From IMG/VR virus record IMGVR_UViG_3300024981_000245: a stretch of DNA of 64,000 nucleotides. One strand, written 5' to 3'. Under the pieces are notes generated by a model. It did no database searches. It worked only from the letters and a program-made list of their open reading frames with translations, and was not told where the DNA came from. Made by a program: the position numbers and the translations under genes. This DNA is from a virus. Positions 1-64,000 of this stretch are shown here, piece by piece. How positions within the stretch are numbered: position 1 is the stretch's first letter; every line of letters starts with the position of its first letter.

Positions 1-1532
1 TTGTAGACCTCTTCCCAGAAGAGCTTGCTGATCTCAGTCACCGGCTTCGTCGCGCGGGACTTGCCGACCTTCGAGCCGCCGACAACGACACCGTAGAAGT
101 TCAGGATGATGTCGGCACCGTCAACCATCGGGATGATCGCTCGGTGTGAGAAGCACAGGCTGAGGATCACCCAGCGGTTCAGGCGGTAGATCTGCTCCGA
201 GATCACGTCACGGTTTGCCTTGCGCATGACATCCATGAACTCGTCGCCCCACCAGCTCAGATTGACGACACGCGCCGCCTCCGCATCGGTCAGCAGCTTG
301 ATGCTGCGCGTCGGGAGAAGGTCGGGAACGGCTTGGACGGGAGCAGCGGGCTCCACATCGGCGAGGTACGCGCCCTCTTCGAGCACGGGGCTTCCTGCCA
401 CCTCGAGAGCGAGCTTCCACACCGCGTCGAGCGCCTCGCCGTCCGACTGCGTTGAGCGGATCCCGTTCGCGTGCTTGGCCGCCGGCGAATGCCAGGCGAG
501 CGTAGCCGCCTCAAGCGCAGTCAGCGAGGAATCGTAGGCGAGCGTCATGATGCGCCCGAGGCGGTCACGCAGCGCGGGCGCCGTAGTGACGGCAGGCAAC
601 GTCGTCCAGATGTCGATGAAGCCCGGCGTCGTCACACGGGTTGCGATCGAGACCTGATCCTGGGCGAGGATGTCGATGGGTTTGTCGGGGAAGTCTCCGA
701 ACTTGCGGATCGCTCCAGCCAGGCCCGCGTCCCAGTCGTCGCGGTAGACGGGGGTGTCGTACTCGCCGCGAAGCCACTCGCGCTTCAGGATCTCCAGAGC
801 CTCAACCGCCCCCGTTTCGCCATTCGCCGCGAGCGCGACAATCGACGCCTGGAACGAGATCAACTCGCTGTGCCCGAAGTCGCTATCGCGCGGGATGGAG
901 TTGACCACATCTGCCATCGACCACGACGGCGAGCCTTCCGGCGCGCGTTGTAACCATTCACCCACCGTGCCCGAATAGGGGCTTTCAGTGGGCTCGGCCG
1001 CCGGCGTCAGTAGCCATGCGGGCGGCTCGCCGAATGCATCGCGAGTTGCCGGAATCTCGTTGCCCCACCAGATGAAGTAGGAGGATCCACCCCGGCGGTC
1101 GACATCCTCGAGCTTGAGCCCATCGGGGGTTACGTGCCCCTTCGTTCCCGACAGGCGAACATCGCTAGGTGCCGCGTAGACATAGTGGTCACCGCCACGA
1201 TTGGTCTGATAGTGCGCGGTTTCGGGCAGGTCGTCCAGACCGTTCTCAATGAGCGTGTTCCAGCCGTCGTGCCCATCGCCCATATCAATGTCTGCTGTCA
1301 CCAAGCCAGAGCGGCCCGCATTGACGCCCACGAGCGCATCAGGCCAGCGCGACCACCACTGCTCGATCTGTCGCGCATCCGTTGTCGCTTCGAGGTGGCC
1401 TGAGCGCGTGTACGGCGTCTTCATCTCGAAGATGCGACCATCGGCACGCTCGGGCTTTTCCCGGACAGGGAAGACAGCGACGCCGATAGCCGCAAGGGCC
1501 TTGGCTTTCATCTTCGGCGTCAAGCCTTTCAC
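1..1532 (-). CDS. 5' part of primase-polymerase/helicase (full copy 58703-61219)
   Basis: Identical to 59688-61219. Confidence 0.9.
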   Translation of the reverse strand, partial: MKGLTPKMKAKALAAIGVAVFPVREKPERADGRIFEMKTPYTRSGHLEATTDARQIEQWWSRWPDALVGVNAGRSGLVTADIDMGDGHDGWNTLIENGLDDLPETAHYQTNRGGDHYVYAAPSDVRLSGTKGHVTPDGLKLEDVDRRGGSSYFIWWGNEIPATRDAFGEPPAWLLTPAAEPTESPYSGTVGEWLQRAPEGSPSWSMADVVNSIPRDSDFGHSELISFQASIVALAANGETGAVEALEILKREWLRGEYDTPVYRDDWDAGLAGAIRKFGDFPDKPIDILAQDQVSIATRVTTPGFIDIWTTLPAVTTAPALRDRLGRIMTLAYDSSLTALEAATLAWHSPAAKHANGIRSTQSDGEALDAVWKLALEVAGSPVLEEGAYLADVEPAAPVQAVPDLLPTRSIKLLTDAEAARVVNLSWWGDEFMDVMRKANRDVISEQIYRLNRWVILSLCFSHRAIIPMVDGADIILNFYGVVVGGSKVGKSRATKPVTEISKLFWEEVY

Positions 1533-1541
1533 CCTTTCCGA

Positions 1542-1553
1542 TTAGTGGACTGA
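1542..1553. promoter_or_regulatory. Operator-like motif, variant TTAGTGGACTGA
   Basis: 11/12 match, directly upstream of the prim-pol SD. Confidence 0.7.
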
Positions 1554-1562
1554 TTGGATTTG

Positions 1563-1635
1563 CTGGCTAGGCAGGACTCGAACCTGCGACCTTGGAGTTA
1601 ACGGCCCCCCGCTCTGCCATCTGAGCTACTAGCCA
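1563..1635 (-). tRNA. tRNA-Asn(GTT) (duplicate at 61250-61322)
   Basis: Hand-folded cloverleaf: acceptor TGGCTAG/CTAGCCA, D stem GCTC/GAGC, anticodon GTT, T arm GCAGG-TTCGAGT-CCTGC, discriminator G; no encoded CCA; G27-A43 mismatch. Confidence 0.9.
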
Positions 1636-1669
1636 TTGTGCGCGTTGACCAGTCGCGCCCCTGGTCGGG

Positions 1670-2290
1670 TCAGAAGCCCTTGCCGGCGCCGACGGCCGCC
1701 TGCTGGAGGCGGAGCTGCGCGATCGCCACGGGATCAGCCCCGTCCACGACGGTGGCGATCTTGGCGTCGTCCAGGCCGAGAGCGATGAGCTGTGCGGCCT
1801 GTGCCTTCTGCGCATCGTTCAGCGCGGCGGGGAAGGCGTCGGGAGCCTTGGCCTCTGCGCCGCCGCCGAGCAGGGCGTCGACGGGCGAGCCCTTGACGAT
1901 CTCGTACTTGAAGAGCTTCGGCGCGAAGCCCTTCTGCGGCTTGGGTCCGTCACCGATGTACGTCGCCGTGAAGGTGTCGCCGACCGCCGGCGCGCCCTTG
2001 GCGAGACGGCTTGCCTCGCGCAGTGCCTTGATCTTCTCGCCCCACGCGTTGATGTAGATAGCGCGCACGCCATCGTCATCCTCGTCGAGGCGCTCGGTCG
2101 TCTGGATGTTGATGACGGCCTGCTTCTTCGGGTTGCCATCGTCCCAGAACTCGGGCTTGCCAGTGTCGAAGTTGGTCGCCTGACGGGTCTCCGCGCTCGT
2201 CACGATGCCCGTGTACGAGTCGCCGATCTTCTCGAACTTGGCCGTCTTGCCGCCGCCCGCGAGGAGGGCGTCGAGGGTGTCATTGCTCAT
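1670..2290 (-). CDS. ssb: Single-stranded DNA-binding protein (phage OB-fold type)
   Basis: KFEKIGDSYTG...FWDDGNPK pattern; next to exonuclease; start reassigned to ATG 2290. Confidence 0.7.
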   Translation of the reverse strand: MSNDTLDALLAGGGKTAKFEKIGDSYTGIVTSAETRQATNFDTGKPEFWDDGNPKKQAVINIQTTERLDEDDDGVRAIYINAWGEKIKALREASRLAKGAPAVGDTFTATYIGDGPKPQKGFAPKLFKYEIVKGSPVDALLGGGAEAKAPDAFPAALNDAQKAQAAQLIALGLDDAKIATVVDGADPVAIAQLRLQQAAVGAGKGF

Positions 2291-2331
2291 TTCTGATCTC
2301 CTTGATCTCTCGTTCTTCCTTGGTTCACCCT

Positions 2332-3054
2332 CTAGACGCCGAGCAGCGCTTCGAGGGAGTCTGTGTTCCCGGCCGTTTCGGACCAGTCGGGATACTTCTT
2401 GCAGTTGAAGCAATCGGGGTCACGCGGCAAGCCGCTGATCCAGTCGTCGCGCTCTTCGATTGTCGAGAAGGCGCGGATGTCGGCGACGATGCTCTCGGCG
2501 CGGTCAAGCGCTTCAAGCGCAATAAGGGGCTGGAAATCCTCTTCCCACCAGTAGCCCTGGCGAAGCGTCATGGCGTTGCGGGGCATGTACCAAACGGCAA
2601 CGCGATGCACCTCACGGCCAGCGCGGAGATGCCCCAATCCGTAGCTGTGCCCCTGGGTGCGGTACTGCGGGCTCGGGCCACGCTTAGCTTTGCGCAGGGT
2701 CGTGGCGCCGACGATCTTGAAATCGACCGATGTCCCGGTGGGGATGTGGAAGAGGTCTGCCGTTCCGGGAAGATCACGACCCGCAAGCTTGCCAACGGAA
2801 ACGCGAGTCTCCGTAAGCCAGTCGGGCAGGGGCTCGAAGACGCGCTCGAGCTGCGCGTGCATGGCGGTGCCAATGTACGGCAGCCACGCCGCCTCGGGCT
2901 GCTGTTCCCATCCAGCCAATTTCGCCGCGACACAATGCAGGCACGCAGATCCGATCTCTGAGGGACCTATGTGCTCCTGGAGGTTTCGCGGCTGCTGCAT
3001 CATGGCCTGCTCGACAATGTCGATGGCGAGATCGTAGACGGGATACTTGCTCAC
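2332..3054 (-). CDS. Cas4-like PD-(D/E)xK exonuclease
   Basis: IGPSEIGSACLHC, GTADL, VDFK, Q..SY, C-terminal CFNCKKY. Confidence 0.8.
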   Translation of the reverse strand: MSKYPVYDLAIDIVEQAMMQQPRNLQEHIGPSEIGSACLHCVAAKLAGWEQQPEAAWLPYIGTAMHAQLERVFEPLPDWLTETRVSVGKLAGRDLPGTADLFHIPTGTSVDFKIVGATTLRKAKRGPSPQYRTQGHSYGLGHLRAGREVHRVAVWYMPRNAMTLRQGYWWEEDFQPLIALEALDRAESIVADIRAFSTIEERDDWISGLPRDPDCFNCKKYPDWSETAGNTDSLEALLGV

Positions 3055-3287
3055 GGGTTCCGAGCCTCTCGGGCTCGTGCTCGGCGCAACTGCTCTGGTG
3101 TTGCATGGCCGCCCTTGATGCACCGCTCATCGAATGCGCGCTCTTCGTAGGCGGTGCGAACCATGTAGTCAATCTCTTCTGGAATGAAGCCGTGTGCAAG
3201 CATGCGAGCGCCAATGCCGAGGGCTCGCACCGCATCGTCAGGGCGTAGACCGAGCTGCTCGGCGACTTGTTCGAGTTTGACGGTCAT
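3051..3287 (-). CDS. Hypothetical protein
   Basis: Coupled ORF MTVKLEQ... Confidence 0.6.
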   Translation of the reverse strand: MTVKLEQVAEQLGLRPDDAVRALGIGARMLAHGFIPEEIDYMVRTAYEERAFDERCIKGGHATPEQLRRARAREARNP

Positions 3288-3463
3288 CCTGGCTGCTCTC
3301 CTGAGATGCAAAGCGGGTTGATGCAGTCCCACCACGAAAGCGTTGTGGTCGCCGGGACCATGAGGGCGCGGCACGCGGGGCAAAGAACGCCGTACTCGAG
3401 GGCCTCTTCGAGGAGGGTATCCCGGCCGATCGGCGCGATCGAGAGCGGAGCATTGATGGTCAT
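3284..3463 (-). CDS. Small zinc-finger protein (59 aa)
   Basis: Hand-translated MTINAPL...CPAC...CINPLC; coupled at both ends. Confidence 0.55.
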   Translation of the reverse strand: MTINAPLSIAPIGRDTLLEEALEYGVLCPACRALMVPATTTLSWWDCINPLCISGEQPG

Positions 3464-3744
3464 GGCTTCAGCTCCCCCTTCTCGTGATCCCAGTAGCAGC
3501 CGGGTTCGCGGTATTTGTTCAGCTCAGGGTCATCCGGCCATGTGCACAGCGGGCCCGGCTCGTGCTTGACAAGGTCCGGTCGGCAATCCTCGACCCAGTG
3601 CCGCTTGCCGTTGAACTCGTAGTCGTCATGCGTCAAGTCCTGCCCACAGAAGTGGCAGCGGTGATCGGCGTAGTTGCAGCGGTCACAGATCTCGTAGTAC
3701 GGCAGGCCGGAATCCGGCTCGATGTCGCCTGAACGGATGGGCAT
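3460..3744 (-). CDS. Cys/His-rich hypothetical protein
   Basis: CDRC, CHFC motifs. Confidence 0.6.
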   Translation of the reverse strand: MPIRSGDIEPDSGLPYYEICDRCNYADHRCHFCGQDLTHDDYEFNGKRHWVEDCRPDLVKHEPGPLCTWPDDPELNKYREPGCYWDHEKGELKP

Positions 3745-4082
3745 CAAGACACCTTCACGCTCGGGCTTGTCTCGACTTCATACTTCTTCAGCTCAATCGG
3801 CGAGAAGTGCTCCCGAACTGCGGGGACGTTGATGACCGGCTTGAAAAGATGAGGGTACTGCGTGACCGGAAAGCGCTCCTCGAGGCGCTTGGTGTCCAGG
3901 CGGCGCGACGTGGAGATGCTGACTGTCCAGTCGCCAGCCTCCGTCTTGCCCATTGGGGTGTTCTCGATGATCTGCGCGATGAGGGCTGCTTCCTCGGACT
4001 TGAGATCCTCGATGCGACCCCGGACGGTCGCGAGCCGTGCTGCGGCTTCTGCCCTGTTGAACGTTGTGGTGGCAGTGGTCAT
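3744..4082 (-). CDS. Hypothetical protein with coiled-coil N-terminus
   Basis: Strong SD, phage-like codon usage. Confidence 0.7.
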   Translation of the reverse strand: MTTATTTFNRAEAAARLATVRGRIEDLKSEEAALIAQIIENTPMGKTEAGDWTVSISTSRRLDTKRLEERFPVTQYPHLFKPVINVPAVREHFSPIELKKYEVETSPSVKVS

Positions 4083-4136
4083 TGCCTTCTCCTCTCCTTG
4101 GCTCCCTGGTTGGTGGTGGTTACCACCGTACCAGGA

Positions 4137-4148
4137 TTAGTGGACTAA
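4137..4148. promoter_or_regulatory. Operator TTAGTGGACTAA
   Basis: Exact; just upstream of a TACGGT -10 on the minus strand. Confidence 0.85.
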
Positions 4149-4324
4149 TTCTGTAGTTGGGGTGCGGTGCACGAAGCACCCCAAGATGTAGTGGTCGAAG
4201 ACGGGGACACCGCTGTCCCCTACGCCCTCCTTCTGCGCTTGTACCCCATCTGCGTGCTCCTCCTTACGATTAGTGGGCAGTTCTGACGCGTCTAACTCTA
4301 CGCATTCAGGCCACTTAGTGCAAG

Positions 4325-4343: not shown

Positions 4344-4631
4344 CTATGAATCATGCGGGCCCTGAGCCTGACGGCCCGCCACCCACACTCCCCCACCCCA
4401 CACTCCCCACTGCACGCGCCTCTTGCGGGCGTGCTCGGCGCACAGCAGAAGCAGCGGACACGGCTCACACAGCGCCGCAGCCGTCTCCGCATCAGGCAGC
4501 GGATAGTCGTAGTCGGCGTAGTACTTCGCCTTGTCGGCGCAGTACGGCTGCGGGAAGCGCTCCGGCTGCGAGTGAGCGAACTCCAGCGCCAGCTCGAAGT
4601 CTGTCTGTGCGGCCTTCTTACCCTTGCCCAT
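4344..4631 (-). CDS. whiB: WhiB-family transcription factor
   Basis: Four-Cys pattern C..CEPCPLLLLC and GVWGG motif. Confidence 0.9.
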   Translation of the reverse strand: MGKGKKAAQTDFELALEFAHSQPERFPQPYCADKAKYYADYDYPLPDAETAAALCEPCPLLLLCAEHARKRRVQWGVWGGGVWVAGRQAQGPHDS

Positions 4632-5138
4632 CTAGACCTTCTCCTTCTTCGGGTGAAACTGCCTGTGCAGCTCGAGCAACTCGGGGCTTCGGCGAATGGC
4701 GCTCCATGTGCGCTTCCACTCGAGCACGGCGTCTGCTGGCCGGTGAGCGTTGACGTCGAAGCGCTCGCGCAGATGGATGCCGCTACGCCCAATGTCCTCA
4801 GCGATGAAGGAGATCGGCATCCCCTCCTCAACCAGGGCGTAAATGCGCTCCAGCTCTTGCGGCGTGTACGGCTTCGCAACACGCGTGCGCATGTTCTCGA
4901 AAGCGCGGTCGACGGTCTTCTCGTTGACGCCAAGGTGCTCCGCAACTTGCTTGCGCGTCATCCCGCCGGCCACCAGCGAAAGAACATGGCGATCGCGAAT
5001 AGCCCGGCGGATGCTGGCAGCGTGGTTGCCGCCCGGAGGGAAGCGAATACCTCTTGCCTTCAGCTCAGCGGCGATATCCGCCTCGGCGAGACCGCCATCG
5101 TAGAGCGCGAGGATCAGTTCTCGGACTTGAAGATCCAC
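4632..5138 (-). CDS. Helix-turn-helix DNA-binding protein
   Basis: GMTRKQVAEHLGVNEKTV plus a second HTH-like segment. Confidence 0.7.
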   Translation of the reverse strand: MDLQVRELILALYDGGLAEADIAAELKARGIRFPPGGNHAASIRRAIRDRHVLSLVAGGMTRKQVAEHLGVNEKTVDRAFENMRTRVAKPYTPQELERIYALVEEGMPISFIAEDIGRSGIHLRERFDVNAHRPADAVLEWKRTWSAIRRSPELLELHRQFHPKKEKV

Positions 5139-15554: not shown

Positions 15555-15599
15555 TTAGTGGACTAATCCGATTCTAGCGAAGGTGATTGCCGGTGTCTA
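15555..15599 (-). promoter_or_regulatory. Leftward sigma-A-type promoter with operator at the start site
   Basis: -35 TAGACA (15594-15599), 17 nt, -10 TAGAAT (15571-15576), exact operator 15555-15566; variant TTATTGGACTAA at 15604-15615. Confidence 0.8.
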
Positions 15600-15619
15600 C
15601 AGATTATTGGACTAAATCT

Positions 15620-16060
15620 GTTGGATTCAGGAAACTCTCAGGAATGAGTTTGAGGGTGGTCTACGAATCGGGGCCACTCTACACATTCGGACCGCGTTTC
15701 CGAGTATGCAATTGTTTTGTGCCTGTCGAGGGCGAAAAAGTTGTGAAAGTAGACCCCCGCGTGATAATCGGGTAAGCACAAAGCTGATTTGTGTTTGGAC
15801 CATATGTGTTGTTGTCTGGGAGTTTGCTGAGAGCGCGAGGCCTTGAAAACACTGGAGTCTTGTTTTTGAAGCTTAAGAGACCATAAGTAAGAATGTGATT
15901 CATATATATATGGTAATAGGATAAGTACGTTCTAAAATGGAGTGTCAAAAACTTCTCGAAATGTGGGTTTCAACCCATCGTTGAGCCGCTTGGATTCGGT
16001 CGTCGGCTGGTTGACGTCGATGGTTCGATGTGTTAAGGTTCGCGATTCACGCTAGCCGGT
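15620..16060. other. AT-rich non-coding island (candidate replication origin)
   Basis: 39/120 G+C counted over 15841-15960; palindrome CATATATATATG at 15901-15912; no credible ORF. Confidence 0.55.
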
Positions 16061-16156
16061 GATCGTTAGTTTTGAACGCTTCACCTGTTCCGCCTCGCGA
16101 CGATGCCGCGGCACGACGCACGCGCGTGATAGTGCACAAGTCTTGCTTTGTCAACT

Positions 16157-16177: not shown

Positions 16178-16399
16178 ATGGAACCTACTCGTAAGCGCGC
16201 AGCCAATCGACTCTCTTACCTCGCCAGTCAGGCCGAGCCCACACTGGATCGGCTCAGAGAAAGGATTGACGATCTGAGCGCCTTGACGCCGATGCCGCTG
16301 CACTCGGTCGCCCGGCTGCGTGCAGCTGTCGATGAGCTTTCCGAAGCCTTGACGGCCTTGCCGCCCGCATCGGTGCTTGCCGGTGCGAAGGTCGCTTAG
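16178..16399 (+). CDS. Hypothetical protein (leaderless)
   Basis: ORF with promoter. Confidence 0.6.
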   Translation: MEPTRKRAANRLSYLASQAEPTLDRLRERIDDLSALTPMPLHSVARLRAAVDELSEALTALPPASVLAGAKVA

Positions 16400-23442: not shown

Positions 23443-23594
23443 CCGAGAAGTCAGCACCGGTCGGCGTAGTCAAGATGGATGACCGCGGCCGGATCAACAT
23501 CAAGAAGCACCTCATCGGCGAAGCCCCGCTGTCCTGGGTGGTCTACCGCTCCCCCGACGGTCAGCATCTCACACTCGAGGCGGTGACCCAGTGA
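23439..23594 (+). CDS. AbrB/MraZ-like small protein (tentative)
   Basis: VVKMDDRGRINI resembles the swapped-hairpin D.rGRi motif. Confidence 0.4.
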   Translation: MTEKSAPVGVVKMDDRGRINIKKHLIGEAPLSWVVYRSPDGQHLTLEAVTQ

Positions 23595-23740
23595 GCCTAG
23601 CGCGCGGCGCGTTCATGCTCTACGACGGCCTTCTGCGCGTCGAGGTCGTTCGGGAGCTGGGCGACGGCATGGCGATCGTGAAGATTGGCGCTGACAGTCG
23701 CGTCGTCGACGTGAACCGGTTGACGGAGGTGGAGGGGTGA
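23591..23740 (+). CDS. Small hypothetical protein
   Basis: Coupled ORF. Confidence 0.5.
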   Translation: MSLARGAFMLYDGLLRVEVVRELGDGMAIVKIGADSRVVDVNRLTEVEG

Positions 23741-23982
23741 ATGACGAAAGTGTCAACCACCCCTCCCACTACACGTCTGATCCCAGTGGTATCGAGTGCA
23801 TCCAGATCACTCGGCATCGCAACTTCAATGTCGGCAACGCCATCAAATACCTCTGGAGAGCTGGCCTGAAGGTAGAGGGAGACCGCACGCTCGTCGAGAA
23901 GCAGTGCGAAGACCTGGAGAAGGCGATCTGGTACATCCAAGACGAGGTCGCCCGCCTCCGCTCCTCCTCACTCCAGCACTAG
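23737..23982 (+). CDS. DUF3310 (SaV-like) protein
   Basis: VNHPSHYT, GIECI, FNVGNAIKYLWRAGLK. Confidence 0.85.
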   Translation: MNDESVNHPSHYTSDPSGIECIQITRHRNFNVGNAIKYLWRAGLKVEGDRTLVEKQCEDLEKAIWYIQDEVARLRSSSLQH

Positions 23983-24150
23983 CCCAGATTCCAGGAGCAC
24001 CGCCCCCAGGGCCCTCTCTACGGCCCGGATGAAGATGCCCCTGTCGAAGGCGAAGCAGTGGTCTCCGGCTTCCAGAACGATGAAGTCGGGGCCACTGCTC
24101 AGCTCTACGCAGCGACCGCCGTCGAACTCCCTGATTGTGGTGGTGCTCAT
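23968..24150 (-). CDS. 60-aa protein under a LexA box (candidate antirepressor)
   Basis: SD GGGGAG; own promoter with SOS box. Confidence 0.7.
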   Translation of the reverse strand: MSTTTIREFDGGRCVELSSGPDFIVLEAGDHCFAFDRGIFIRAVERALGAVLLESGLVLE

Positions 24151-24167
24151 TTCTTCTCCCCAGAGTA

Positions 24168-24183
24168 TCGAACATCTGTTCGA
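24168..24183. promoter_or_regulatory. LexA (SOS) box TCGAACATCTGTTCGA
   Basis: Perfect match to actinobacterial TCGAAC-N4-GTTCGA; 3 nt downstream of the -10. Confidence 0.88.
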
Positions 24184-24186
24184 CAG

Positions 24187-24215
24187 AATCTATGCCACGT
24201 CACCGACATTGCCAA
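24187..24215 (-). promoter_or_regulatory. Sigma-A-type promoter of the 60-aa gene
   Basis: -35 TTGGCA (24210-24215), 17 nt, -10 TAGATT (24187-24192). Confidence 0.75.
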
Positions 24216-24348
24216 CCCTGTGACTGTTCGCAGCCGATGCGTACCAGGCGAAGCTAGATGGAGCCGACCCCACGGTCAAGCGGGGGCCACGGAACGACCA
24301 CAGCAGATATGTATCGCTAGCCTCTCTAGCCCTTCGAGGCAGGACGTG

Positions 24349-24372
24349 TACACTACACATTCAGTCCACTAA
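24349..24372 (+). promoter_or_regulatory. Promoter of the DGQHR gene with operator variant at the start site
   Basis: -10 TACACT (24349-24354); TCAGTCCACTAA (24361-24372). Confidence 0.7.
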
Positions 24373-24391
24373 TTCGTTCCAGGGAGCAAAA

Positions 24392-25795
24392 ATGGCCCAG
24401 ACCAAGGCCGCACCACGCCAAGCCGCCCCCACTGGCTACAGCACCGACACCCAGTTCTTCGCGTCTCGCTACCGCCAGGGTGGTCGAACCGTCTACTCGG
24501 TGGCCCTCACGCCCGACCAGATCATCAACAACATCCCGCGACCGAACCCCGAGCAGGCAAACCCCGGCAACCGCGCGATCCGGCCGGCGCACGCACAGGG
24601 CTTTGCGGACTACTACCTCCAGCATGACAACTGGATCATCCCCGGGCTCATCCTGCGCGCCCCGGACATCTTCGACTTCACCTCGGATCAGTCGGTCGTC
24701 ACCGGAGACATTGACTTCGGGATGCTCTCCTACCCCAACCGCAAACGCCTCGAAATCCAGATCCTCGATGGCCAGCACCGTATCCTCGGCTTCCACCTCG
24801 CGATTGAGAAGGTCGGCGAGTTGCTCGCCAAGGCGAAGGACCACCGAGCCCGGGCGCTGAAGACCGACCACAAGAACTCGCGTCTCGTGAAGGACGCCGA
24901 GGCCGAGGTAGAACGCCTCGAGCGCAAACTCGACCGCTTCCACCAGGAGCGCGTTTCTGTCGAGATCCAGGTCATCGACGACATCGCCTCATTCCGCCAG
25001 GCATTCTTCGACATTGCAGACAACGCGCTCGGTATCTCGGCATCCGTCAAGGCGCGCTTCGATAAGCGCAAGGTCGTCAACCGCGCCTTCGCGATCGTCG
25101 CTGAGCACCCCCTGCTCGTCGGCCGCGTCGACCCCGAGAACGACCGCCTCGGGCGCACGGGGCCGTACCTGCTGTCCGCACGCCATGTCGTTGAGATCAT
25201 TCGCGTCTCCAATGTAGGTATCGAAGGTCGTATCGGCGTCAAGCAGGAGAAGACGCTGAACGAGATCGAGGTGGCGAAGAAGGCTATGGCGTTCTTCGAT
25301 GCCGCTCTCAAGGCCTTCCCGCAGCTTCAGGCGATACAGGATGGCACGCTGACGCCGGATCGCCTGCGCCAGATCTCCATGCTCGGCTCGCCCCTGTTCC
25401 TGCGCATCCTCGCCGGCGCATACTACGAGTTGCGCGACCCGGTAAAGCATGCCTGGAGCGACGCGCAGGTCATCGAGTACTTTGAGGCAATCGGAAAGCA
25501 CCTCGCCGTCCCGCTGCACGCCAACACGATCTGGTTGAAGCACACGCCCGAGGACACCTTCAATGTGGGCGGATACGGCCCCAACGGTCGGCGCCAAGAC
25601 ATCATGAACCTCTCGCACGCGATGTGGGATTGGGCCCTGGATCACGCCGACTTCGTCTGGGCCGATCCCGAGCCTGCGCCGAAGCCCGAGCCGACCAAGG
25701 ATGAGCTGGAGATCGACTACAGCGACCTCGGCGACGAGGCCCTGGCTGAGCGCCTGAAGGCAGAAGACCTCGCATCGGGGATCAGCAAGAAGTAG
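24392..25795 (+). CDS. Orphan DndB/DGQHR-family (ParB-like fold) protein
   Basis: ILDGQHR, N-terminal GNR, RQAFFDI...S.SVKARFD. Confidence 0.85.
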   Translation: MAQTKAAPRQAAPTGYSTDTQFFASRYRQGGRTVYSVALTPDQIINNIPRPNPEQANPGNRAIRPAHAQGFADYYLQHDNWIIPGLILRAPDIFDFTSDQSVVTGDIDFGMLSYPNRKRLEIQILDGQHRILGFHLAIEKVGELLAKAKDHRARALKTDHKNSRLVKDAEAEVERLERKLDRFHQERVSVEIQVIDDIASFRQAFFDIADNALGISASVKARFDKRKVVNRAFAIVAEHPLLVGRVDPENDRLGRTGPYLLSARHVVEIIRVSNVGIEGRIGVKQEKTLNEIEVAKKAMAFFDAALKAFPQLQAIQDGTLTPDRLRQISMLGSPLFLRILAGAYYELRDPVKHAWSDAQVIEYFEAIGKHLAVPLHANTIWLKHTPEDTFNVGGYGPNGRRQDIMNLSHAMWDWALDHADFVWADPEPAPKPEPTKDELEIDYSDLGDEALAERLKAEDLASGISKK

Positions 25796-25810
25796 GGGAC
25801 ACGAATGGAA

Positions 25811-25845
25811 AGAACCCCGCCCGGAGCGATCACGGGCGGGGTTCT
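25811..25845. terminator. Intrinsic terminator after the DGQHR gene
   Basis: AGAACCCCGCCCG/CGGGCGGGGTTCT stem with T-rich tail. Confidence 0.8.
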
Positions 25846-25895
25846 TCTCGTGCAGACTCGGCTTACCTCCGCCAGTTTAGATCACAGAATCAGGA

Positions 25896-25918
25896 TTAGT
25901 CCACTAATCGGCTAGAAT
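25896..25918 (+). promoter_or_regulatory. Operator plus -10 TAGAAT; leaderless terS promoter
   Basis: Exact operator 25896-25907; -10 is 6 nt before ATG. Confidence 0.85.
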
Positions 25919-34143: not shown

Positions 34144-35148
34144 TCACTCGAGCGCCTTGAGCACGTCGCCGAAGTCCAGATCTCCGTGGTGCGCGTAGCG
34201 CTCGGTGACCGCGATCGATGAGTGGCCCAGGAGCAGCGAGACCTTTGAGATGGCCATCCCCGACTGGAGCAACCAGGAGGCGTAGGAGTGGCGAAGGTCG
34301 TGCACTCGACCACCGGTGTCGAGCGGCGCCCAGACGGTCTTTCGCCACAGTGAGAGCTGCACGGGGAAGATTCGGTCCCGAGCGTTCTCGGCGAATGGAT
34401 CCAGTCGCTCCGCCACCCACGCGGGGACGGGAACGTCCCGGATGGCTCGAGACTTCGGGTACGGGCGCATCTGCTTCGTGCGCGTGTCCCACACCTCCGC
34501 TACTCGAATGATCCGACGTACAGGGTTGTAACGGTGTGGCATAAGCCCCACGGCCTCCCCCCACCGCAGGCCAGTGCCAGCGAGCAGGGAGATGAGCGCC
34601 TTGTCCCGCTCAGCTTCGGTGTTGTCGACGAAGCGGTCGACCTGAGCGCGGGTGAAGTACCGAACGATGTCCTTCTCGCCATTCGGCAGCTTAAGCCGGT
34701 AGGCGGGGTTAGTGGACAGAATCTCCGCATCCACGGCCGCCGACAGGGAGGCGGCGAAGATGCTGACGATTCGGTAGACGCTCGACTCCGAGAGACCCGA
34801 CGCGCCAAGCTCGGCGGCCCATGCCTTCACTTCGTAGCGAGTGATGTTGGCGAGCGGCACCTTCTCCCACTTCTTGCGGATGTGGTTGTTGACCTGTGAC
34901 ATGTCCCGGCGCAGTGTCCCCGGGGCCACATTGCGCTTCGGCCACCACTCGTCGAGCCAGTCTCCCCACGCGCGGCCGCCCGCCTTCGGGTCGCGCCATC
35001 CCGGCTTGTTCGCCGCCTCCTCGGCATCGATCGCCTTCGCAAGCGCCTGTTCCCAGTACGGGTAGGTTCCTGCTGAGCGAGTCTTGCCGTCGGGCCCGCG
35101 GTAGAGCCCGCGGTACTTGCCGCTGGGCGACTTCTGATACCAAGCCAT
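34144..35148 (-). CDS. int: Tyrosine integrase (leaderless)
   Basis: TGLRWGE, HDLRHSYASW, LLGHS...TERY; adjacent attP; -10 TACTCT 6 nt before ATG. Confidence 0.95.
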   Translation of the reverse strand: MAWYQKSPSGKYRGLYRGPDGKTRSAGTYPYWEQALAKAIDAEEAANKPGWRDPKAGGRAWGDWLDEWWPKRNVAPGTLRRDMSQVNNHIRKKWEKVPLANITRYEVKAWAAELGASGLSESSVYRIVSIFAASLSAAVDAEILSTNPAYRLKLPNGEKDIVRYFTRAQVDRFVDNTEAERDKALISLLAGTGLRWGEAVGLMPHRYNPVRRIIRVAEVWDTRTKQMRPYPKSRAIRDVPVPAWVAERLDPFAENARDRIFPVQLSLWRKTVWAPLDTGGRVHDLRHSYASWLLQSGMAISKVSLLLGHSSIAVTERYAHHGDLDFGDVLKALE

Positions 35149-35219: not shown

Positions 35220-35408
35220 GTGATCTTGAAGATGTCGGAGATGGAGAGAAGGTCCGGCCTTTCGCGGTACACGCTCATGCGTGCGCTGAAAGCTGGCAAG
35301 CTCCACGGCATGCACACCGGCGTCAACGGCACATGGCGTGTCCGTGAGGAGTGCTTCGAGAACTGGCTCGAGGGCGAGCGGTGCGCCCATCAGGCGGTGG
35401 CGGCATGA
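35220..35408 (+). CDS. xis: Excisionase (MerR-like HTH)
   Basis: 62 aa, divergent from int, GLSRYTL...GKLHG...WRV. Confidence 0.75.
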   Translation: MILKMSEMERRSGLSRYTLMRALKAGKLHGMHTGVNGTWRVREECFENWLEGERCAHQAVAA

Positions 35409-43601: not shown

Positions 43602-44522
43602 GTGGAGATCGCCGTGAGCGACACTACCGCGCCAACGCGCACCCAACCCAGCCCCCTCGCCGAGATCGCCCGCACAGGGTTTCTCGACCGGTACACCGCC
43701 GGCACCCGCCGCCTCTACGAACTCGACCTGCGGCTGTTCTTCGCATGGTGCGCGGAGCAGCAGCTCGACCCGCTCGACGCACGCCGACCGCACCTCGAAG
43801 CATTCGGCCGCCACCTGACCATTGAGCGGGGCAACAGTCCCCGCTCGGCGTGCCGGCGCTTGCAGACGATCCGATCCTTCTACCGTCTCGCCGTCGTCGA
43901 CGAACTCATCGACCGTGACCCGACGATGCTTATGCGCATGCCCAGGTGGCACGTCGACCGGTCCACCATCGCCTACCTCACCCCAGCGCAAGTCGGGCAA
44001 CTGCTCCATGCGGCAGAGACCATGTCGCCGGCGCACCACGCGCTGATCGCGTTGATGGCGATGCTCGGCCTCCGAGTGTCCGAAGCGTGCGCCGTGCAGA
44101 TCGAAGACCTCACCGAAGATACGCTCGGCTACGTCGTCCTCACCGCGACCCGCAAGGGCGGGAAGACGTCACGGATGCCGATACCCGTCCCACTGCTCCG
44201 CATCCTCCGCCGCGCGATCGGTGACCGCACGACCGGGCCGGTGATCCTCACCCGTACGGGCCGCCAGCAGAACCGCCGCGGCGCGTACGACTGGTTCAAA
44301 CGCGCCGCCACGCGCGCAGGACTCCCCGACAACGTGCACCCGCACACGCTCCGCCATGCCGCGATCAGCGCGCTCGTCAACGCCGGCGTACCCATGCATG
44401 AGGCGCAAGAGTTCGCCGACCACTCCGACATCCGCACCACCGCGCACTACTACCACCGACCCCTCACCCTCGACCAGCACGGAGCGCACGTCACCGCGAG
44501 ACTCTTCGCCGCCGCAGCCTAG
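43602..44522 (+). CDS. Second tyrosine recombinase (XerC/D-like)
   Basis: SAM-like N-terminus; LGLRVSE, RKGGK, HTLRH, ADHSDIRTTAHY: all catalytic residues present. Confidence 0.92.
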   Translation: MEIAVSDTTAPTRTQPSPLAEIARTGFLDRYTAGTRRLYELDLRLFFAWCAEQQLDPLDARRPHLEAFGRHLTIERGNSPRSACRRLQTIRSFYRLAVVDELIDRDPTMLMRMPRWHVDRSTIAYLTPAQVGQLLHAAETMSPAHHALIALMAMLGLRVSEACAVQIEDLTEDTLGYVVLTATRKGGKTSRMPIPVPLLRILRRAIGDRTTGPVILTRTGRQQNRRGAYDWFKRAATRAGLPDNVHPHTLRHAAISALVNAGVPMHEAQEFADHSDIRTTAHYYHRPLTLDQHGAHVTARLFAAAA

Positions 44523-58706: not shown

Positions 58707-61219
58707 TGCCTTCCTCCCCTGATCAACGAAACAACTTGTTGGCCCTGCTGCGACCTGAGATCGAGCAACTCCGCCCTTCCCTGCGCGGTCAGCTCGTCGA
58801 GAATCTGCTTGACGTCTCTCGACCTACCGGCATACTCCGGGTTGCGGTGGATCTCCGTGAGCGGCATCCGTCCACCGTTCTTCTCGATGAGCCTGACGAG
58901 CCTGTTCGCCCGGCGGGCCATCGGCGACTCATCGGTGGCTTCAACGAGCGTCACGATGTTCGAGGCCCATTCCTCTGCCTGTTCCAGCGCGAGGAGATAG
59001 TCATCCATTTGGATGCACCTTCTGTTGTTGGTGATCGCGACAAGCGCAGCGCACTTCAGGATCGTCTCCTGGAGGCGGCCGAATGTCGGATCCAGGCGGT
59101 CCTCGTAAGGGCCGGATGCGGCGATGCGCTCGAGAGTCTCGAGAGTCTCGACGTGCCGATCAGCTACCTCATCGGTCATGTCGATCCAGGCGAACTTCTC
59201 GCCGGGCTCCACATCCAGCGTCGTGCGCAGGGTGGCATTGAATCGGGCCACCCACTGTTGATACCAGGCGGCCAAATCGACTGCGGAGGCGTCGGCGCCC
59301 TTGCGTTTGATGTTCGGGCGCTTCTGCTCACGTGTGAGCTGCTTGCGCTCACCGAATGCCCATACGAAGCGGTTGATGAAGCCCGTCTCCCAGTCCTTCG
59401 GATCGATCGCATCCGTGATCTGGTGCTGGATCCCCGAGAGGATCGCGTTCAACCTGGCCTGGGCGTGCTTGCCGGAGTTGTCCTTCGTCGCGCGCAGTGT
59501 GGCTTTCACGTCGCCGAGGTAGACGTCGGTGATGAACTGAGACATTCCGGCGAACGGGCCCTTGATATCCTTCCAGGCCAGGAGGATCGCATCCGCCTCG
59601 TCCGGGTGGAAGTAGGTGGGCAGGCCGTCGAGCGCGATGAGGGCGTCGGTGAGGCCAGCCTTCGTGGCGTCGCCACCGATGTCGGGGTTGTAGACCTCTT
59701 CCCAGAAGAGCTTGCTGATCTCAGTCACCGGCTTCGTCGCGCGGGACTTGCCGACCTTCGAGCCGCCGACAACGACACCGTAGAAGTTCAGGATGATGTC
59801 GGCACCGTCAACCATCGGGATGATCGCTCGGTGTGAGAAGCACAGGCTGAGGATCACCCAGCGGTTCAGGCGGTAGATCTGCTCCGAGATCACGTCACGG
59901 TTTGCCTTGCGCATGACATCCATGAACTCGTCGCCCCACCAGCTCAGATTGACGACACGCGCCGCCTCCGCATCGGTCAGCAGCTTGATGCTGCGCGTCG
60001 GGAGAAGGTCGGGAACGGCTTGGACGGGAGCAGCGGGCTCCACATCGGCGAGGTACGCGCCCTCTTCGAGCACGGGGCTTCCTGCCACCTCGAGAGCGAG
60101 CTTCCACACCGCGTCGAGCGCCTCGCCGTCCGACTGCGTTGAGCGGATCCCGTTCGCGTGCTTGGCCGCCGGCGAATGCCAGGCGAGCGTAGCCGCCTCA
60201 AGCGCAGTCAGCGAGGAATCGTAGGCGAGCGTCATGATGCGCCCGAGGCGGTCACGCAGCGCGGGCGCCGTAGTGACGGCAGGCAACGTCGTCCAGATGT
60301 CGATGAAGCCCGGCGTCGTCACACGGGTTGCGATCGAGACCTGATCCTGGGCGAGGATGTCGATGGGTTTGTCGGGGAAGTCTCCGAACTTGCGGATCGC
60401 TCCAGCCAGGCCCGCGTCCCAGTCGTCGCGGTAGACGGGGGTGTCGTACTCGCCGCGAAGCCACTCGCGCTTCAGGATCTCCAGAGCCTCAACCGCCCCC
60501 GTTTCGCCATTCGCCGCGAGCGCGACAATCGACGCCTGGAACGAGATCAACTCGCTGTGCCCGAAGTCGCTATCGCGCGGGATGGAGTTGACCACATCTG
60601 CCATCGACCACGACGGCGAGCCTTCCGGCGCGCGTTGTAACCATTCACCCACCGTGCCCGAATAGGGGCTTTCAGTGGGCTCGGCCGCCGGCGTCAGTAG
60701 CCATGCGGGCGGCTCGCCGAATGCATCGCGAGTTGCCGGAATCTCGTTGCCCCACCAGATGAAGTAGGAGGATCCACCCCGGCGGTCGACATCCTCGAGC
60801 TTGAGCCCATCGGGGGTTACGTGCCCCTTCGTTCCCGACAGGCGAACATCGCTAGGTGCCGCGTAGACATAGTGGTCACCGCCACGATTGGTCTGATAGT
60901 GCGCGGTTTCGGGCAGGTCGTCCAGACCGTTCTCAATGAGCGTGTTCCAGCCGTCGTGCCCATCGCCCATATCAATGTCTGCTGTCACCAAGCCAGAGCG
61001 GCCCGCATTGACGCCCACGAGCGCATCAGGCCAGCGCGACCACCACTGCTCGATCTGTCGCGCATCCGTTGTCGCTTCGAGGTGGCCTGAGCGCGTGTAC
61101 GGCGTCTTCATCTCGAAGATGCGACCATCGGCACGCTCGGGCTTTTCCCGGACAGGGAAGACAGCGACGCCGATAGCCGCAAGGGCCTTGGCTTTCATCT
61201 TCGGCGTCAAGCCTTTCAC
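58703..61219 (-). CDS. Bifunctional primase-polymerase fused to an ATPase/helicase domain
   Basis: IEQWWSRWPDALVG...DID, T..GG.HYVY, DRRG..SY; Walker A GGSKVGKS. Confidence 0.88.
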   Translation of the reverse strand: MKGLTPKMKAKALAAIGVAVFPVREKPERADGRIFEMKTPYTRSGHLEATTDARQIEQWWSRWPDALVGVNAGRSGLVTADIDMGDGHDGWNTLIENGLDDLPETAHYQTNRGGDHYVYAAPSDVRLSGTKGHVTPDGLKLEDVDRRGGSSYFIWWGNEIPATRDAFGEPPAWLLTPAAEPTESPYSGTVGEWLQRAPEGSPSWSMADVVNSIPRDSDFGHSELISFQASIVALAANGETGAVEALEILKREWLRGEYDTPVYRDDWDAGLAGAIRKFGDFPDKPIDILAQDQVSIATRVTTPGFIDIWTTLPAVTTAPALRDRLGRIMTLAYDSSLTALEAATLAWHSPAAKHANGIRSTQSDGEALDAVWKLALEVAGSPVLEEGAYLADVEPAAPVQAVPDLLPTRSIKLLTDAEAARVVNLSWWGDEFMDVMRKANRDVISEQIYRLNRWVILSLCFSHRAIIPMVDGADIILNFYGVVVGGSKVGKSRATKPVTEISKLFWEEVYNPDIGGDATKAGLTDALIALDGLPTYFHPDEADAILLAWKDIKGPFAGMSQFITDVYLGDVKATLRATKDNSGKHAQARLNAILSGIQHQITDAIDPKDWETGFINRFVWAFGERKQLTREQKRPNIKRKGADASAVDLAAWYQQWVARFNATLRTTLDVEPGEKFAWIDMTDEVADRHVETLETLERIAASGPYEDRLDPTFGRLQETILKCAALVAITNNRRCIQMDDYLLALEQAEEWASNIVTLVEATDESPMARRANRLVRLIEKNGGRMPLTEIHRNPEYAGRSRDVKQILDELTAQGRAELLDLRSQQGQQVVSLIRGGRQ

Positions 61220-64000
61220 CCTTTCCGATTAGTGGACTGATTGGATTTGCTGGCTAGGCAGGACTCGAACCTGCGACCTTGGAGTTAACGGCCCCCCGCT
61301 CTGCCATCTGAGCTACTAGCCATTGTGCGCGTTGACCAGTCGCGCCCCTGGTCGGGTCAGAAGCCCTTGCCGGCGCCGACGGCCGCCTGCTGGAGGCGGA
61401 GCTGCGCGATCGCCACGGGATCAGCCCCGTCCACGACGGTGGCGATCTTGGCGTCGTCCAGGCCGAGAGCGATGAGCTGTGCGGCCTGTGCCTTCTGCGC
61501 ATCGTTCAGCGCGGCGGGGAAGGCGTCGGGAGCCTTGGCCTCTGCGCCGCCGCCGAGCAGGGCGTCGACGGGCGAGCCCTTGACGATCTCGTACTTGAAG
61601 AGCTTCGGCGCGAAGCCCTTCTGCGGCTTGGGTCCGTCACCGATGTACGTCGCCGTGAAGGTGTCGCCGACCGCCGGCGCGCCCTTGGCGAGACGGCTTG
61701 CCTCGCGCAGTGCCTTGATCTTCTCGCCCCACGCGTTGATGTAGATAGCGCGCACGCCATCGTCATCCTCGTCGAGGCGCTCGGTCGTCTGGATGTTGAT
61801 GACGGCCTGCTTCTTCGGGTTGCCATCGTCCCAGAACTCGGGCTTGCCAGTGTCGAAGTTGGTCGCCTGACGGGTCTCCGCGCTCGTCACGATGCCCGTG
61901 TACGAGTCGCCGATCTTCTCGAACTTGGCCGTCTTGCCGCCGCCCGCGAGGAGGGCGTCGAGGGTGTCATTGCTCATTTCTGATCTCCTTGATCTCTCGT
62001 TCTTCCTTGGTTCACCCTCTAGACGCCGAGCAGCGCTTCGAGGGAGTCTGTGTTCCCGGCCGTTTCGGACCAGTCGGGATACTTCTTGCAGTTGAAGCAA
62101 TCGGGGTCACGCGGCAAGCCGCTGATCCAGTCGTCGCGCTCTTCGATTGTCGAGAAGGCGCGGATGTCGGCGACGATGCTCTCGGCGCGGTCAAGCGCTT
62201 CAAGCGCAATAAGGGGCTGGAAATCCTCTTCCCACCAGTAGCCCTGGCGAAGCGTCATGGCGTTGCGGGGCATGTACCAAACGGCAACGCGATGCACCTC
62301 ACGGCCAGCGCGGAGATGCCCCAATCCGTAGCTGTGCCCCTGGGTGCGGTACTGCGGGCTCGGGCCACGCTTAGCTTTGCGCAGGGTCGTGGCGCCGACG
62401 ATCTTGAAATCGACCGATGTCCCGGTGGGGATGTGGAAGAGGTCTGCCGTTCCGGGAAGATCACGACCCGCAAGCTTGCCAACGGAAACGCGAGTCTCCG
62501 TAAGCCAGTCGGGCAGGGGCTCGAAGACGCGCTCGAGCTGCGCGTGCATGGCGGTGCCAATGTACGGCAGCCACGCCGCCTCGGGCTGCTGTTCCCATCC
62601 AGCCAATTTCGCCGCGACACAATGCAGGCACGCAGATCCGATCTCTGAGGGACCTATGTGCTCCTGGAGGTTTCGCGGCTGCTGCATCATGGCCTGCTCG
62701 ACAATGTCGATGGCGAGATCGTAGACGGGATACTTGCTCACGGGTTCCGAGCCTCTCGGGCTCGTGCTCGGCGCAACTGCTCTGGTGTTGCATGGCCGCC
62801 CTTGATGCACCGCTCATCGAATGCGCGCTCTTCGTAGGCGGTGCGAACCATGTAGTCAATCTCTTCTGGAATGAAGCCGTGTGCAAGCATGCGAGCGCCA
62901 ATGCCGAGGGCTCGCACCGCATCGTCAGGGCGTAGACCGAGCTGCTCGGCGACTTGTTCGAGTTTGACGGTCATCCTGGCTGCTCTCCTGAGATGCAAAG
63001 CGGGTTGATGCAGTCCCACCACGAAAGCGTTGTGGTCGCCGGGACCATGAGGGCGCGGCACGCGGGGCAAAGAACGCCGTACTCGAGGGCCTCTTCGAGG
63101 AGGGTATCCCGGCCGATCGGCGCGATCGAGAGCGGAGCATTGATGGTCATGGCTTCAGCTCCCCCTTCTCGTGATCCCAGTAGCAGCCGGGTTCGCGGTA
63201 TTTGTTCAGCTCAGGGTCATCCGGCCATGTGCACAGCGGGCCCGGCTCGTGCTTGACAAGGTCCGGTCGGCAATCCTCGACCCAGTGCCGCTTGCCGTTG
63301 AACTCGTAGTCGTCATGCGTCAAGTCCTGCCCACAGAAGTGGCAGCGGTGATCGGCGTAGTTGCAGCGGTCACAGATCTCGTAGTACGGCAGGCCGGAAT
63401 CCGGCTCGATGTCGCCTGAACGGATGGGCATCAAGACACCTTCACGCTCGGGCTTGTCTCGACTTCATACTTCTTCAGCTCAATCGGCGAGAAGTGCTCC
63501 CGAACTGCGGGGACGTTGATGACCGGCTTGAAAAGATGAGGGTACTGCGTGACCGGAAAGCGCTCCTCGAGGCGCTTGGTGTCCAGGCGGCGCGACGTGG
63601 AGATGCTGACTGTCCAGTCGCCAGCCTCCGTCTTGCCCATTGGGGTGTTCTCGATGATCTGCGCGATGAGGGCTGCTTCCTCGGACTTGAGATCCTCGAT
63701 GCGACCCCGGACGGTCGCGAGCCGTGCTGCGGCTTCTGCCCTGTTGAACGTTGTGGTGGCAGTGGTCATTGCCTTCTCCTCTCCTTGGCTCCCTGGTTGG
63801 TGGTGGTTACCACCGTACCAGGATTAGTGGACTAATTCTGTAGTTGGGGTGCGGTGCACGAAGCACCCCAAGATGTAGTGGTCGAAGACGGGGACACCGC
63901 TGTCCCCTACGCCCTCCTTCTGCGCTTGTACCCCATCTGCGTGCTCCTCCTTACGATTAGTGGGCAGTTCTGACGCGTCTAACTCTACGCATTCAGGCCA
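59688..64000. repeat. Exact repeat of window bases 1-4313 (wrap-around of a 59,687-bp circular contig)
   Basis: ttgtagacc... at 59688 matches base 1; all ORFs recur at +59687; window ends at the equivalent of 4313. Confidence 0.98.

Follow-up and report, generated by a model that had tools for sequence, protein, structure and literature searches.

Coliphage 186 Tum and N15 AntC are LexA-controlled antirepressors. The Gifsy-1 and -3 prophages also code for small antirepressors under LexA control, GfoA and GfhA, which are encoded outside the immunity region (PMC3121763), and linear plasmid-like phages carry transcription factor-small open reading frame (TF-smORF) modules in which small proteins inactivate the master repressor (Silpe et al. 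2023, PMC10432266). The PafBC-dependent (RecA-NDp) promoters are hybrids in which a -26 element, and no -35, accompanies a canonical -10, and RNA polymerase needs activated PafBC to use them (PMC8635444, PMC6789036). Their in vivo consensus is tGTCgg(N10)tA(N3)T (PMC8635444), and mycobacterial recA is a precedent for control of a single gene by both LexA and PafBC (PMC5656591). Damage-coupled induction is poorly understood in actinobacterial prophages, as many of their repressors are without a LexA-like self-cleavage domain. Here, we describe a gene coding for a 60-amino-acid (aa) protein in a viral DNA stretch of 64,000 nucleotides (nt) (IMG/VR record IMGVR_UViG_3300024981_000245, referred to at its full length as the window), whose promoter, P_small, carries a perfect LexA box together with a perfect PafBC-type element. 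The gene is very probably under DNA-damage control, and we see about an even chance that its product is a damage-induced antirepressor that triggers prophage induction.

The 60-aa gene resembles those for GfoA, GfhA, Tum, and AntC in that it is small, its core promoter bears a predicted host LexA operator, and it is carried by a temperate phage with no recognizable self-cleaving repressor, so that induction would be plugged directly into the host damage response. It differs in that the protein has neither sequence similarity nor significant fold similarity to these antirepressors, the host is actinobacterial, a PafBC -26 element is added, and the antirepressor role is one that we infer. Like PafBC-dependent promoters such as recA P1, P_small has a perfect consensus and, as at recA, combines it with predicted LexA control; unlike recA P1, it drives a phage gene and not a host repair gene, and the LexA box lies within the same promoter as the PafBC element, whereas recA has two separate promoters. 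The TF-smORF modules share the logic of a sequence-orphan small protein made on an activator's cue, with no sequence similarity, but they are SOS independent and use a phage-encoded transcription factor, whereas the inputs to the window gene would be two host damage regulators. What is new is the protein family, the host phylum, and the PafBC input added to a LexA-gated antirepressor-type switch.

Read along the minus strand, the locus consists of TTGGCA, 17 nt, TAGATT, CTG, TCGAACAGATGTTCGA, and a further 17 nt that include GGGGAG, followed by the ATG at 24150 (Table 1). A promoter scan of positions 23500 to 24700 returns exactly the TTGGCA/17 nt/TAGATT promoter, and the box starts 3 nt after the -10, such that LexA bound there should cover the transcription start. 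The initial annotation had reported the box, the two hexamers and their spacing, and a leftward 60-aa open reading frame (ORF), all of which hold in every detail on the minus strand, and its claim that this is the only full SOS box also stands: the window contains the perfect 16-mer a single time, no other site comes within one mismatch of it, and none of 100 shuffles contained one. The proposed -35 fared less well, as TTGGCA is indeed present 17 nt from the -10 but is not conserved in relatives, unlike the overlapping TGTCGG. The actinobacterial LexA consensus, TCGAAC-N4-GTTCGA, is general knowledge, and the recA promoter in the host of a relative (see below) concurs with it.

The ORF is under purifying selection and is a real protein-coding gene. 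The GC content at third codon positions (GC3) is 0.80 and that at position 2 is typical, and comparison with a 95%-identical variant found on other metagenomic contigs (L011/L012) shows eight synonymous and three nonsynonymous changes. The same comparison reveals an invariant block over the promoter and operator (24162 to 24234) with no changes in 73 nt, whereas the adjoining 24235 to 24341 has 26 changes in 107 nt (24%). That the box and promoter match by chance, or that the ORF is not a gene, can be regarded as effectively refuted; the GAAC-N4-GTTC core alone, with a single occurrence in the window, is expected by chance about 0.85 times per window, but the failure of shuffling to produce the perfect 16-mer, the phylogenetic footprint, the recurrence of the box in diverged lineages, the membership of the product in a protein family with a confident predicted fold, and the 8:3 ratio of synonymous to nonsynonymous changes all argue otherwise.

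To compare the locus with its relatives, we used the genomic contexts of diverged homologues together with 42 further loci anchored on alignment of the neighboring DndB-like protein, as the small-protein alignment is too diverse for this purpose. Near-identical upstream regions were collapsed to 27 lineages, and 454 gene-upstream regions from the same loci served as controls. A LexA box with no more than two mismatches and within 170 nt of the start is present in 15 of the 27 lineages versus 19 of the 454 controls (4%; Fisher p = 2e-12), although here and below the lineages share ancestry and the p-values overstate their independence, even if the surrounding sequence has diverged freely. The mismatches among relatives are not random; the GTTCGA half is almost invariant, the other half reads TCG(A/T)AC, and A..T is favored in the spacer, giving a pattern, TCG(A/T)AC-AnnT-GTTCGA, that fits the extended consensus. 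In four lineages, the predicted box abuts the -26 element on its 5' side, and elsewhere it closely follows the -10 or overlaps it; from either position, bound LexA would obstruct the PafBC-polymerase complex.

Of the 21 DndB loci lacking a first-pass match to the small family, none has a LexA box, and the predicted box travels with the small gene and not with DndB. We considered regulation of the DndB promoter by the box and rejected it, as the box is missing from DndB loci that lack the small gene and, where present in the window, sits about 210 nt from the DndB start and on the core promoter of the small gene. One relative (L069) has a perfect LexA box, TCGAACACACGTTCGA, at 2243 to 2258 of its contig, some 10 nt ahead of the probable GTG start of a rightward DUF3310 gene, and its small gene has a PafBC-type promoter only. 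With a box at DUF3310 and none at the small gene, control by LexA seems to have shifted to a different gene.

The PafBC-type element emerged from side-by-side reading of the upstream regions, nearly all of which have TGTC(G/T)G, ten bases, and TAnnnT, whether or not a LexA box is present. P_small is a perfect match to the 22-nt PafBC consensus, with the correct spacing to a TAnnnT -10, and TGTCRG-N10-TANNNT matches nowhere else in the 64-kb window on either strand (0.20 matches expected). Under a strict definition, the element is present in 11 of the 27 lineages and in 1 of the 454 controls (Fisher p = 2e-14), and under a relaxed definition in 19 lineages and 11 controls (2%; Fisher p = 2e-20). 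At least one of the LexA box and the PafBC-type element occurs in 22 lineages and both in 12. Because TGTCGG is retained in the upstream regions of relatives and the -35-like hexamer is not, the PafBC reading describes the promoter better than a sigma-70-type one. We found no report in the literature of a PafBC-type promoter on a phage gene.

As the boxes recur in diverged lineages and the promoter block is invariant, damage control of the 60-aa gene is well supported. The initial proposal to this effect is strengthened by the box in 15 of 27 lineages, the unchanged 73-nt footprint, and the PafBC-type element, while the binding of LexA and PafBC at P_small, and the inducibility of the gene, are what we infer from sequence.

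Table 1. Positions of the features discussed, numbered over the whole window; strand is given where reported
Feature	Position	Strand	Remarks
60-aa ORF	23968-24150	-	ORF list and sequence reading
Perfect actinobacterial LexA (SOS) box, TCGAACATCTGTTCGA	24168-24183		Palindrome TCGAAC-N4-GTTCGA; reads TCGAACAGATGTTCGA on the minus strand
Sigma-70-like -35, TTGGCA	24210-24215	-	17 nt from -10; overlaps -26 element region; 9/12 promoter match
-10, TAGATT	24187-24192	-	Promoter scan
PafBC-type (RecA-NDp) hybrid promoter, TGTCGG-TGACGTGGCA-TAGATT	24187-24208	-	-26 element at 24208-24203; full motif TGTCGGTGACGTGGCATAGATT
Invariant promoter/operator block	24162-24234	-	Phylogenetic footprint
Shine-Dalgarno, GGGGAG	24156-24161	-	5 nt before ATG
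DndB/DGQHR (ParB-fold) protein, 467 aa	24392-25795	+	PF14072, E = 1.2e-22
Putative operator copy with one mismatch, TTAGTGGACTGA	24361-24372	-	On DndB promoter; nearest copy to P_small
GC-rich terminator-like hairpin after DndB gene	25810-25846	+	z = -2.9
Putative operator after hairpin	25896-25907		Followed by terS promoter
Putative operator sites, examples	4137, 8162, 15555, 18288, 18311, 19295, 23199, 25896, 26453, 30496, 33033, 35192, 37626, 44581, 45776, 52824
Tyrosine integrase	34144-35148	-	Divergent from HTH_17 excisionase
HTH_17 excisionase (Xis)	35220-35408	+	Domain scans
WhiB	4344-4631		Other repressor candidate
168-aa helix-turn-helix (HTH) protein	4632-5138		Other repressor candidate
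Second tyrosine recombinase, XerD-like	43602-44522	+	E = 5e-34
Phage-encoded tRNA-Asn (GTT)	1562-1635 (= 61249-61322)

The predicted 60-aa protein founds an unnamed family of acidic proteins of about 60 aa. A word-indexed search returned only the protein itself and its 95%-identical variant, but an exhaustive HMMER search of 1.8 billion representatives recovered 27 further clusters (56 to 94 aa, E values down to 2e-13), with an alignment consensus of KE.DGGR.VE...G.V..E.G..C.AFD...FLRA..R.LG and purine-rich sites preceding the starts of most homologues. No member matches Pfam, PHROG, NCBIfam, or PDB sequences, tblastn with the 60-aa protein has no match among about 50,000 deposited phage genomes, and all occurrences of the family are in phages and prophages of the actinobacterial (Microbacterium) type. 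AlphaFold2 run on the family alignment predicts four beta-strands followed by one alpha-helix (mean predicted local distance difference test score of 88), with neither a transmembrane segment nor a DNA-binding signature in the 60-aa protein. Its net charge is -5 (family median, -4), and this acidic character, together with the predicted tight double lock on its promoter, would suit a potent protein-binding trigger.

DUF397 proteins are thought to partner DNA-binding regulators. These small actinobacterial proteins, which are BldB/WhiJ associated, are of similar size and have a similar beta-sheet-plus-helix layout, and a DUF397 fold is found at a template modeling (TM) score of 0.60 in the atlas and at rank 21 (E = 0.37) in AFDB. 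Membership in DUF397 (PF04149) was rejected, however, with none of 29 family members matching the hidden Markov model at an E value of 1 or below and with the fold matches insignificant, and what is left is a weak resemblance.

LexA-regulated accessory genes are a known cargo of prophages, and it is conceivable that the small protein is instead a host-directed SOS effector, modulating RecA, LexA, or PafBC or delaying cell division, that aids the lysogen or phage with no triggering of induction. The promoter, built like those of recA and other host genes of the damage regulon, is compatible with such a role, as is the lack of a DNA-binding signature. We nevertheless think it quite unlikely, given that the protein lacks a transmembrane segment and resembles neither known division inhibitors nor DinI-like proteins, that the family was found only in this phage group, and that a host target does not explain the fixed place of the gene beside DndB in every lineage.

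The window is a complete phage-type record of 59,687 bp wrapped on itself, with positions 1 to 4313 identical to 59688 to 64000 at zero mismatches, and is not a prophage with host flanks. The phage occurs in wastewater, bioreactor, and sludge metagenomes (about 14 studies, all DNA metagenomes), and its large terminase best matches that of Clavibacter phage CN1A (about 50% identity), followed by those of Microbacterium and Arthrobacter phages. It is temperate, as it codes for an integrase, Xis, and leftward moron genes (Wzy-like and GDSL), and one relative (L021) is integrated in the chromosome of Microbacterium sp. No. 7. Domain scans of about 60 phage ORFs with Pfam, PHROG, and NCBIfam recognize no CI/XRE or S24-type repressor, and regulator-type matches are limited to Xis, the 168-aa HTH protein, WhiB, and the two tyrosine recombinases. 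The product of a lone rightward 73-aa ORF (16178 to 16399) is helical and has no HTH.

The phage does appear to be silenced through many dispersed operators. A 12-bp element, TTAGYGGRCTAA, has 31 sites in the window with no more than one mismatch, versus 0.13 expected, corresponding to about 27 distinct genomic sites that lie mostly just before gene starts. This element is a putative dispersed operator of the L5-stoperator type. A motif scan finds no copy at P_small, and with about 27 copies elsewhere and none there, P_small seems to be left to the host damage regulators. Two relatives (L021 and L053) have an operator variant, TTAG-N4-CTAA, with the center TTAG-CCGA/TCGG-CTAA, and a search for the relatives' own operators, as 10-mers recurring within flanks of 7 kb, yielded nothing beyond coding noise.

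Given that the phage is temperate, that no CI or S24 repressor is recognized, and that P_small is without a phage operator, we favor the account in which the 60-aa protein of this temperate actinobacterial siphovirus is an antirepressor, an account we consider evenly poised. P_small would be doubly off in a lysogen, with host LexA on the box covering the transcription start and with a PafBC-type promoter core that RNA polymerase would use only after PafBC is activated by single-stranded DNA. Upon DNA damage, LexA would be removed and PafBC activated, and the small acidic beta4-alpha protein would be made. It would then bind and inactivate the phage DNA-binding regulator that silences the prophage, and induction would begin. 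The likeliest partner, and the least certain step, would be the DndB/DGQHR ParB-fold protein encoded divergently.

Several observations weigh against this account. Neither motif is seen in 5 of the 27 lineages and 12 have no LexA box, and the shared ancestry of the lineages tempers the statistics, as noted above. The failure of the ORF scans to recognize a maintenance repressor leaves the proposed antirepressor with no defined target. Sequence searches and Foldseek detect no similarity to any known antirepressor, and Foldseek gives no significant fold match at all (E > 0.05) in AFDB clusters, PDB, and BFVD. The presence of LexA and PafBC in the host of the window phage is assumed from relatives.

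Genes for ParB-like proteins that serve in packaging or in late functions are often located before terS and terL. The DndB-like gene occupies this position; downstream of it are terS, an HNH/EndoVII gene, terL, and a portal gene, and the order of small gene, divergent DndB-like gene, terS, and terL recurs in all of the compared loci. The intergenic region between the 60-aa gene and DndB is 241 nt. On the other side, the last of the rightward early genes is a DUF3310 gene (23737 to 23982), convergent with the 60-aa gene, which is the sole leftward gene between 19.3 and 34.1 kb, spurious overlapping frames aside. The 3' ends of the two overlap by 15 nt in the window (23968 to 23982) and by 15 to 40 nt in relatives, with no terminator between them, and damage-induced transcription could therefore enter the early operon antisense. 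An iterated profile finds the small family in 40 of 57 loci, including every viral contig with enough upstream sequence. The named hosts of related loci are all Actinomycetota, and the loci with the small gene are mainly from Microbacterium, Agromyces, and other Microbacteriaceae.

The DndB-like protein scores 80.9 bits against PF14072 (cutoff, 29.1 bits) and 58.3 bits against TIGR03187, marginally under the 58.85-bit cutoff, and its DGQHR motif is invariant in the DndB-like alignment. The suggestion in the initial annotation that it has no evident LexA-type self-cleavage domain is confirmed by a Pfam scan, which shows no S24 domain. The hairpin 3' of the gene indicates that DndB is its own transcription unit. 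DndB and DptB are described in PMC12704722 as ATP-dependent ParB-fold repressors of dnd operons, with a promoter-binding repressor role documented for DndB (He et al. 2015, via PMC12704722); the window protein shares with them the PF14072 match and the DGQHR motif. It differs in its location before terS and terL and in the lack of dndCDE, or any other dnd genes, among the phage ORFs scanned. No homologue of the DndB-like protein is found (E value of 1e-5 or below) in about 50,000 deposited phage genomes; it is nonetheless common in uncultured actinophage contigs and prophages.

One specific form of the favored account is that the DndB-like protein is a noncleavable immunity repressor acting at the genome-wide TTAGYGGRCTAA (TTAGTGGACTAA) operators, with the 60-aa protein as its dedicated LexA-controlled antirepressor. 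The two genes are strict divergent neighbors in all lineages, the DGQHR gene is monocistronic, ending at a terminator-like hairpin and bearing a weakened copy of the putative operator on its promoter, the protein has no S24 domain and no other repressor is recognized, and DndB is published as a ParB-fold transcriptional repressor (PMC12704722). However, nothing ties the protein to the operators or to lysogeny maintenance, DndB-like genes at 35 to 46% identity are present in other Actinomycetota without the small gene, the constant location of the gene immediately ahead of terS and terL would also suit a function in packaging or a late one, and the 168-aa HTH protein and WhiB are other repressor candidates. 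We therefore regard this form as doubtful. Identification of the DGQHR protein as the target of the 60-aa protein, on the basis of strict synteny and of no other recognizable repressor, is similarly tentative. More doubtful still is the full combination, in which temperate phages of Microbacteriaceae-like Actinobacteria use the 60-aa protein to sense damage through both host circuits (LexA repression and PafBC "sigma adaptation") and its target is a ParB-fold DndB/DGQHR immunity repressor bound to about 27 12-bp operators; if true, this would constitute a new repressor/antirepressor pair, as well as the first instance of PafBC promoters in use by a phage.

The conserved pairing with the DndB-like gene at the boundary of the early and packaging genes, and the conservation in relatives of a promoter element before DndB, could also reflect a damage-induced small protein that acts with or on the DndB-like protein outside immunity, by licensing packaging or late transcription or by modulating a ParB-fold nucleoside triphosphatase (NTPase) clamp, after induction by another route. 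A late helper would be expected under the control of the phage, though, rather than of host LexA and PafBC, and would not be expected opposite in strand to every lytic gene, and we judge such a role unlikely. We note that the DndB promoter region (24342 to 24391; ACATT.AGTCCACT) is conserved at the same place in L013, L017, and L023, at 50 to 65% protein identity, and that no other operator copy is seen in their flanks.

Host-side checks relied on Microbacterium sp. No. 7, which was isolated from activated sludge and whose genome carries the relative L021. Its genome has lexA and recA, as well as tandem WYL-domain genes consistent with pafBC. The recA promoter has a LexA-type box, TCGTAGAAGTGTTCGA, which is the same variant as in the relatives of the window gene, and a PafBC-type motif, TGTCGGAG-N8-TAACGT. 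The small gene of L021, AOA12_06120 (4001 to 4198), has the box TCGTACAGATGTTCGA. The annotated ATG of AOA12_06120 sits inside the LexA box, and the family alignment and an AGGAGG site indicate that the true start is a GTG or ATG about 25 to 35 nt downstream. This cultured lysogen makes the antirepressor account directly testable, and the locus is a concrete, conserved candidate for a promoter that reads both arms of the actinobacterial damage response. If confirmed, PafBC, beyond LexA and RecA, would determine prophage induction in Actinobacteria, with relevance to wastewater and soil communities and to the mobilization of prophages by DNA-damaging antibiotics.

Three other features of the phage genome are of note. 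The gene for the XerD-like recombinase adjoins the leftward Wzy-like and GDSL genes within the tail module. Within the leftward replication arm, a stretch of about 600 bp (15570 to 16150) is AT rich and contains no credible ORF; bordered by putative operator copies at 15555, 15604, and 16157, it could be an origin or regulatory region. The tRNA-Asn gene is flanked by a further operator copy, with one mismatch, at 1542 to 1553.

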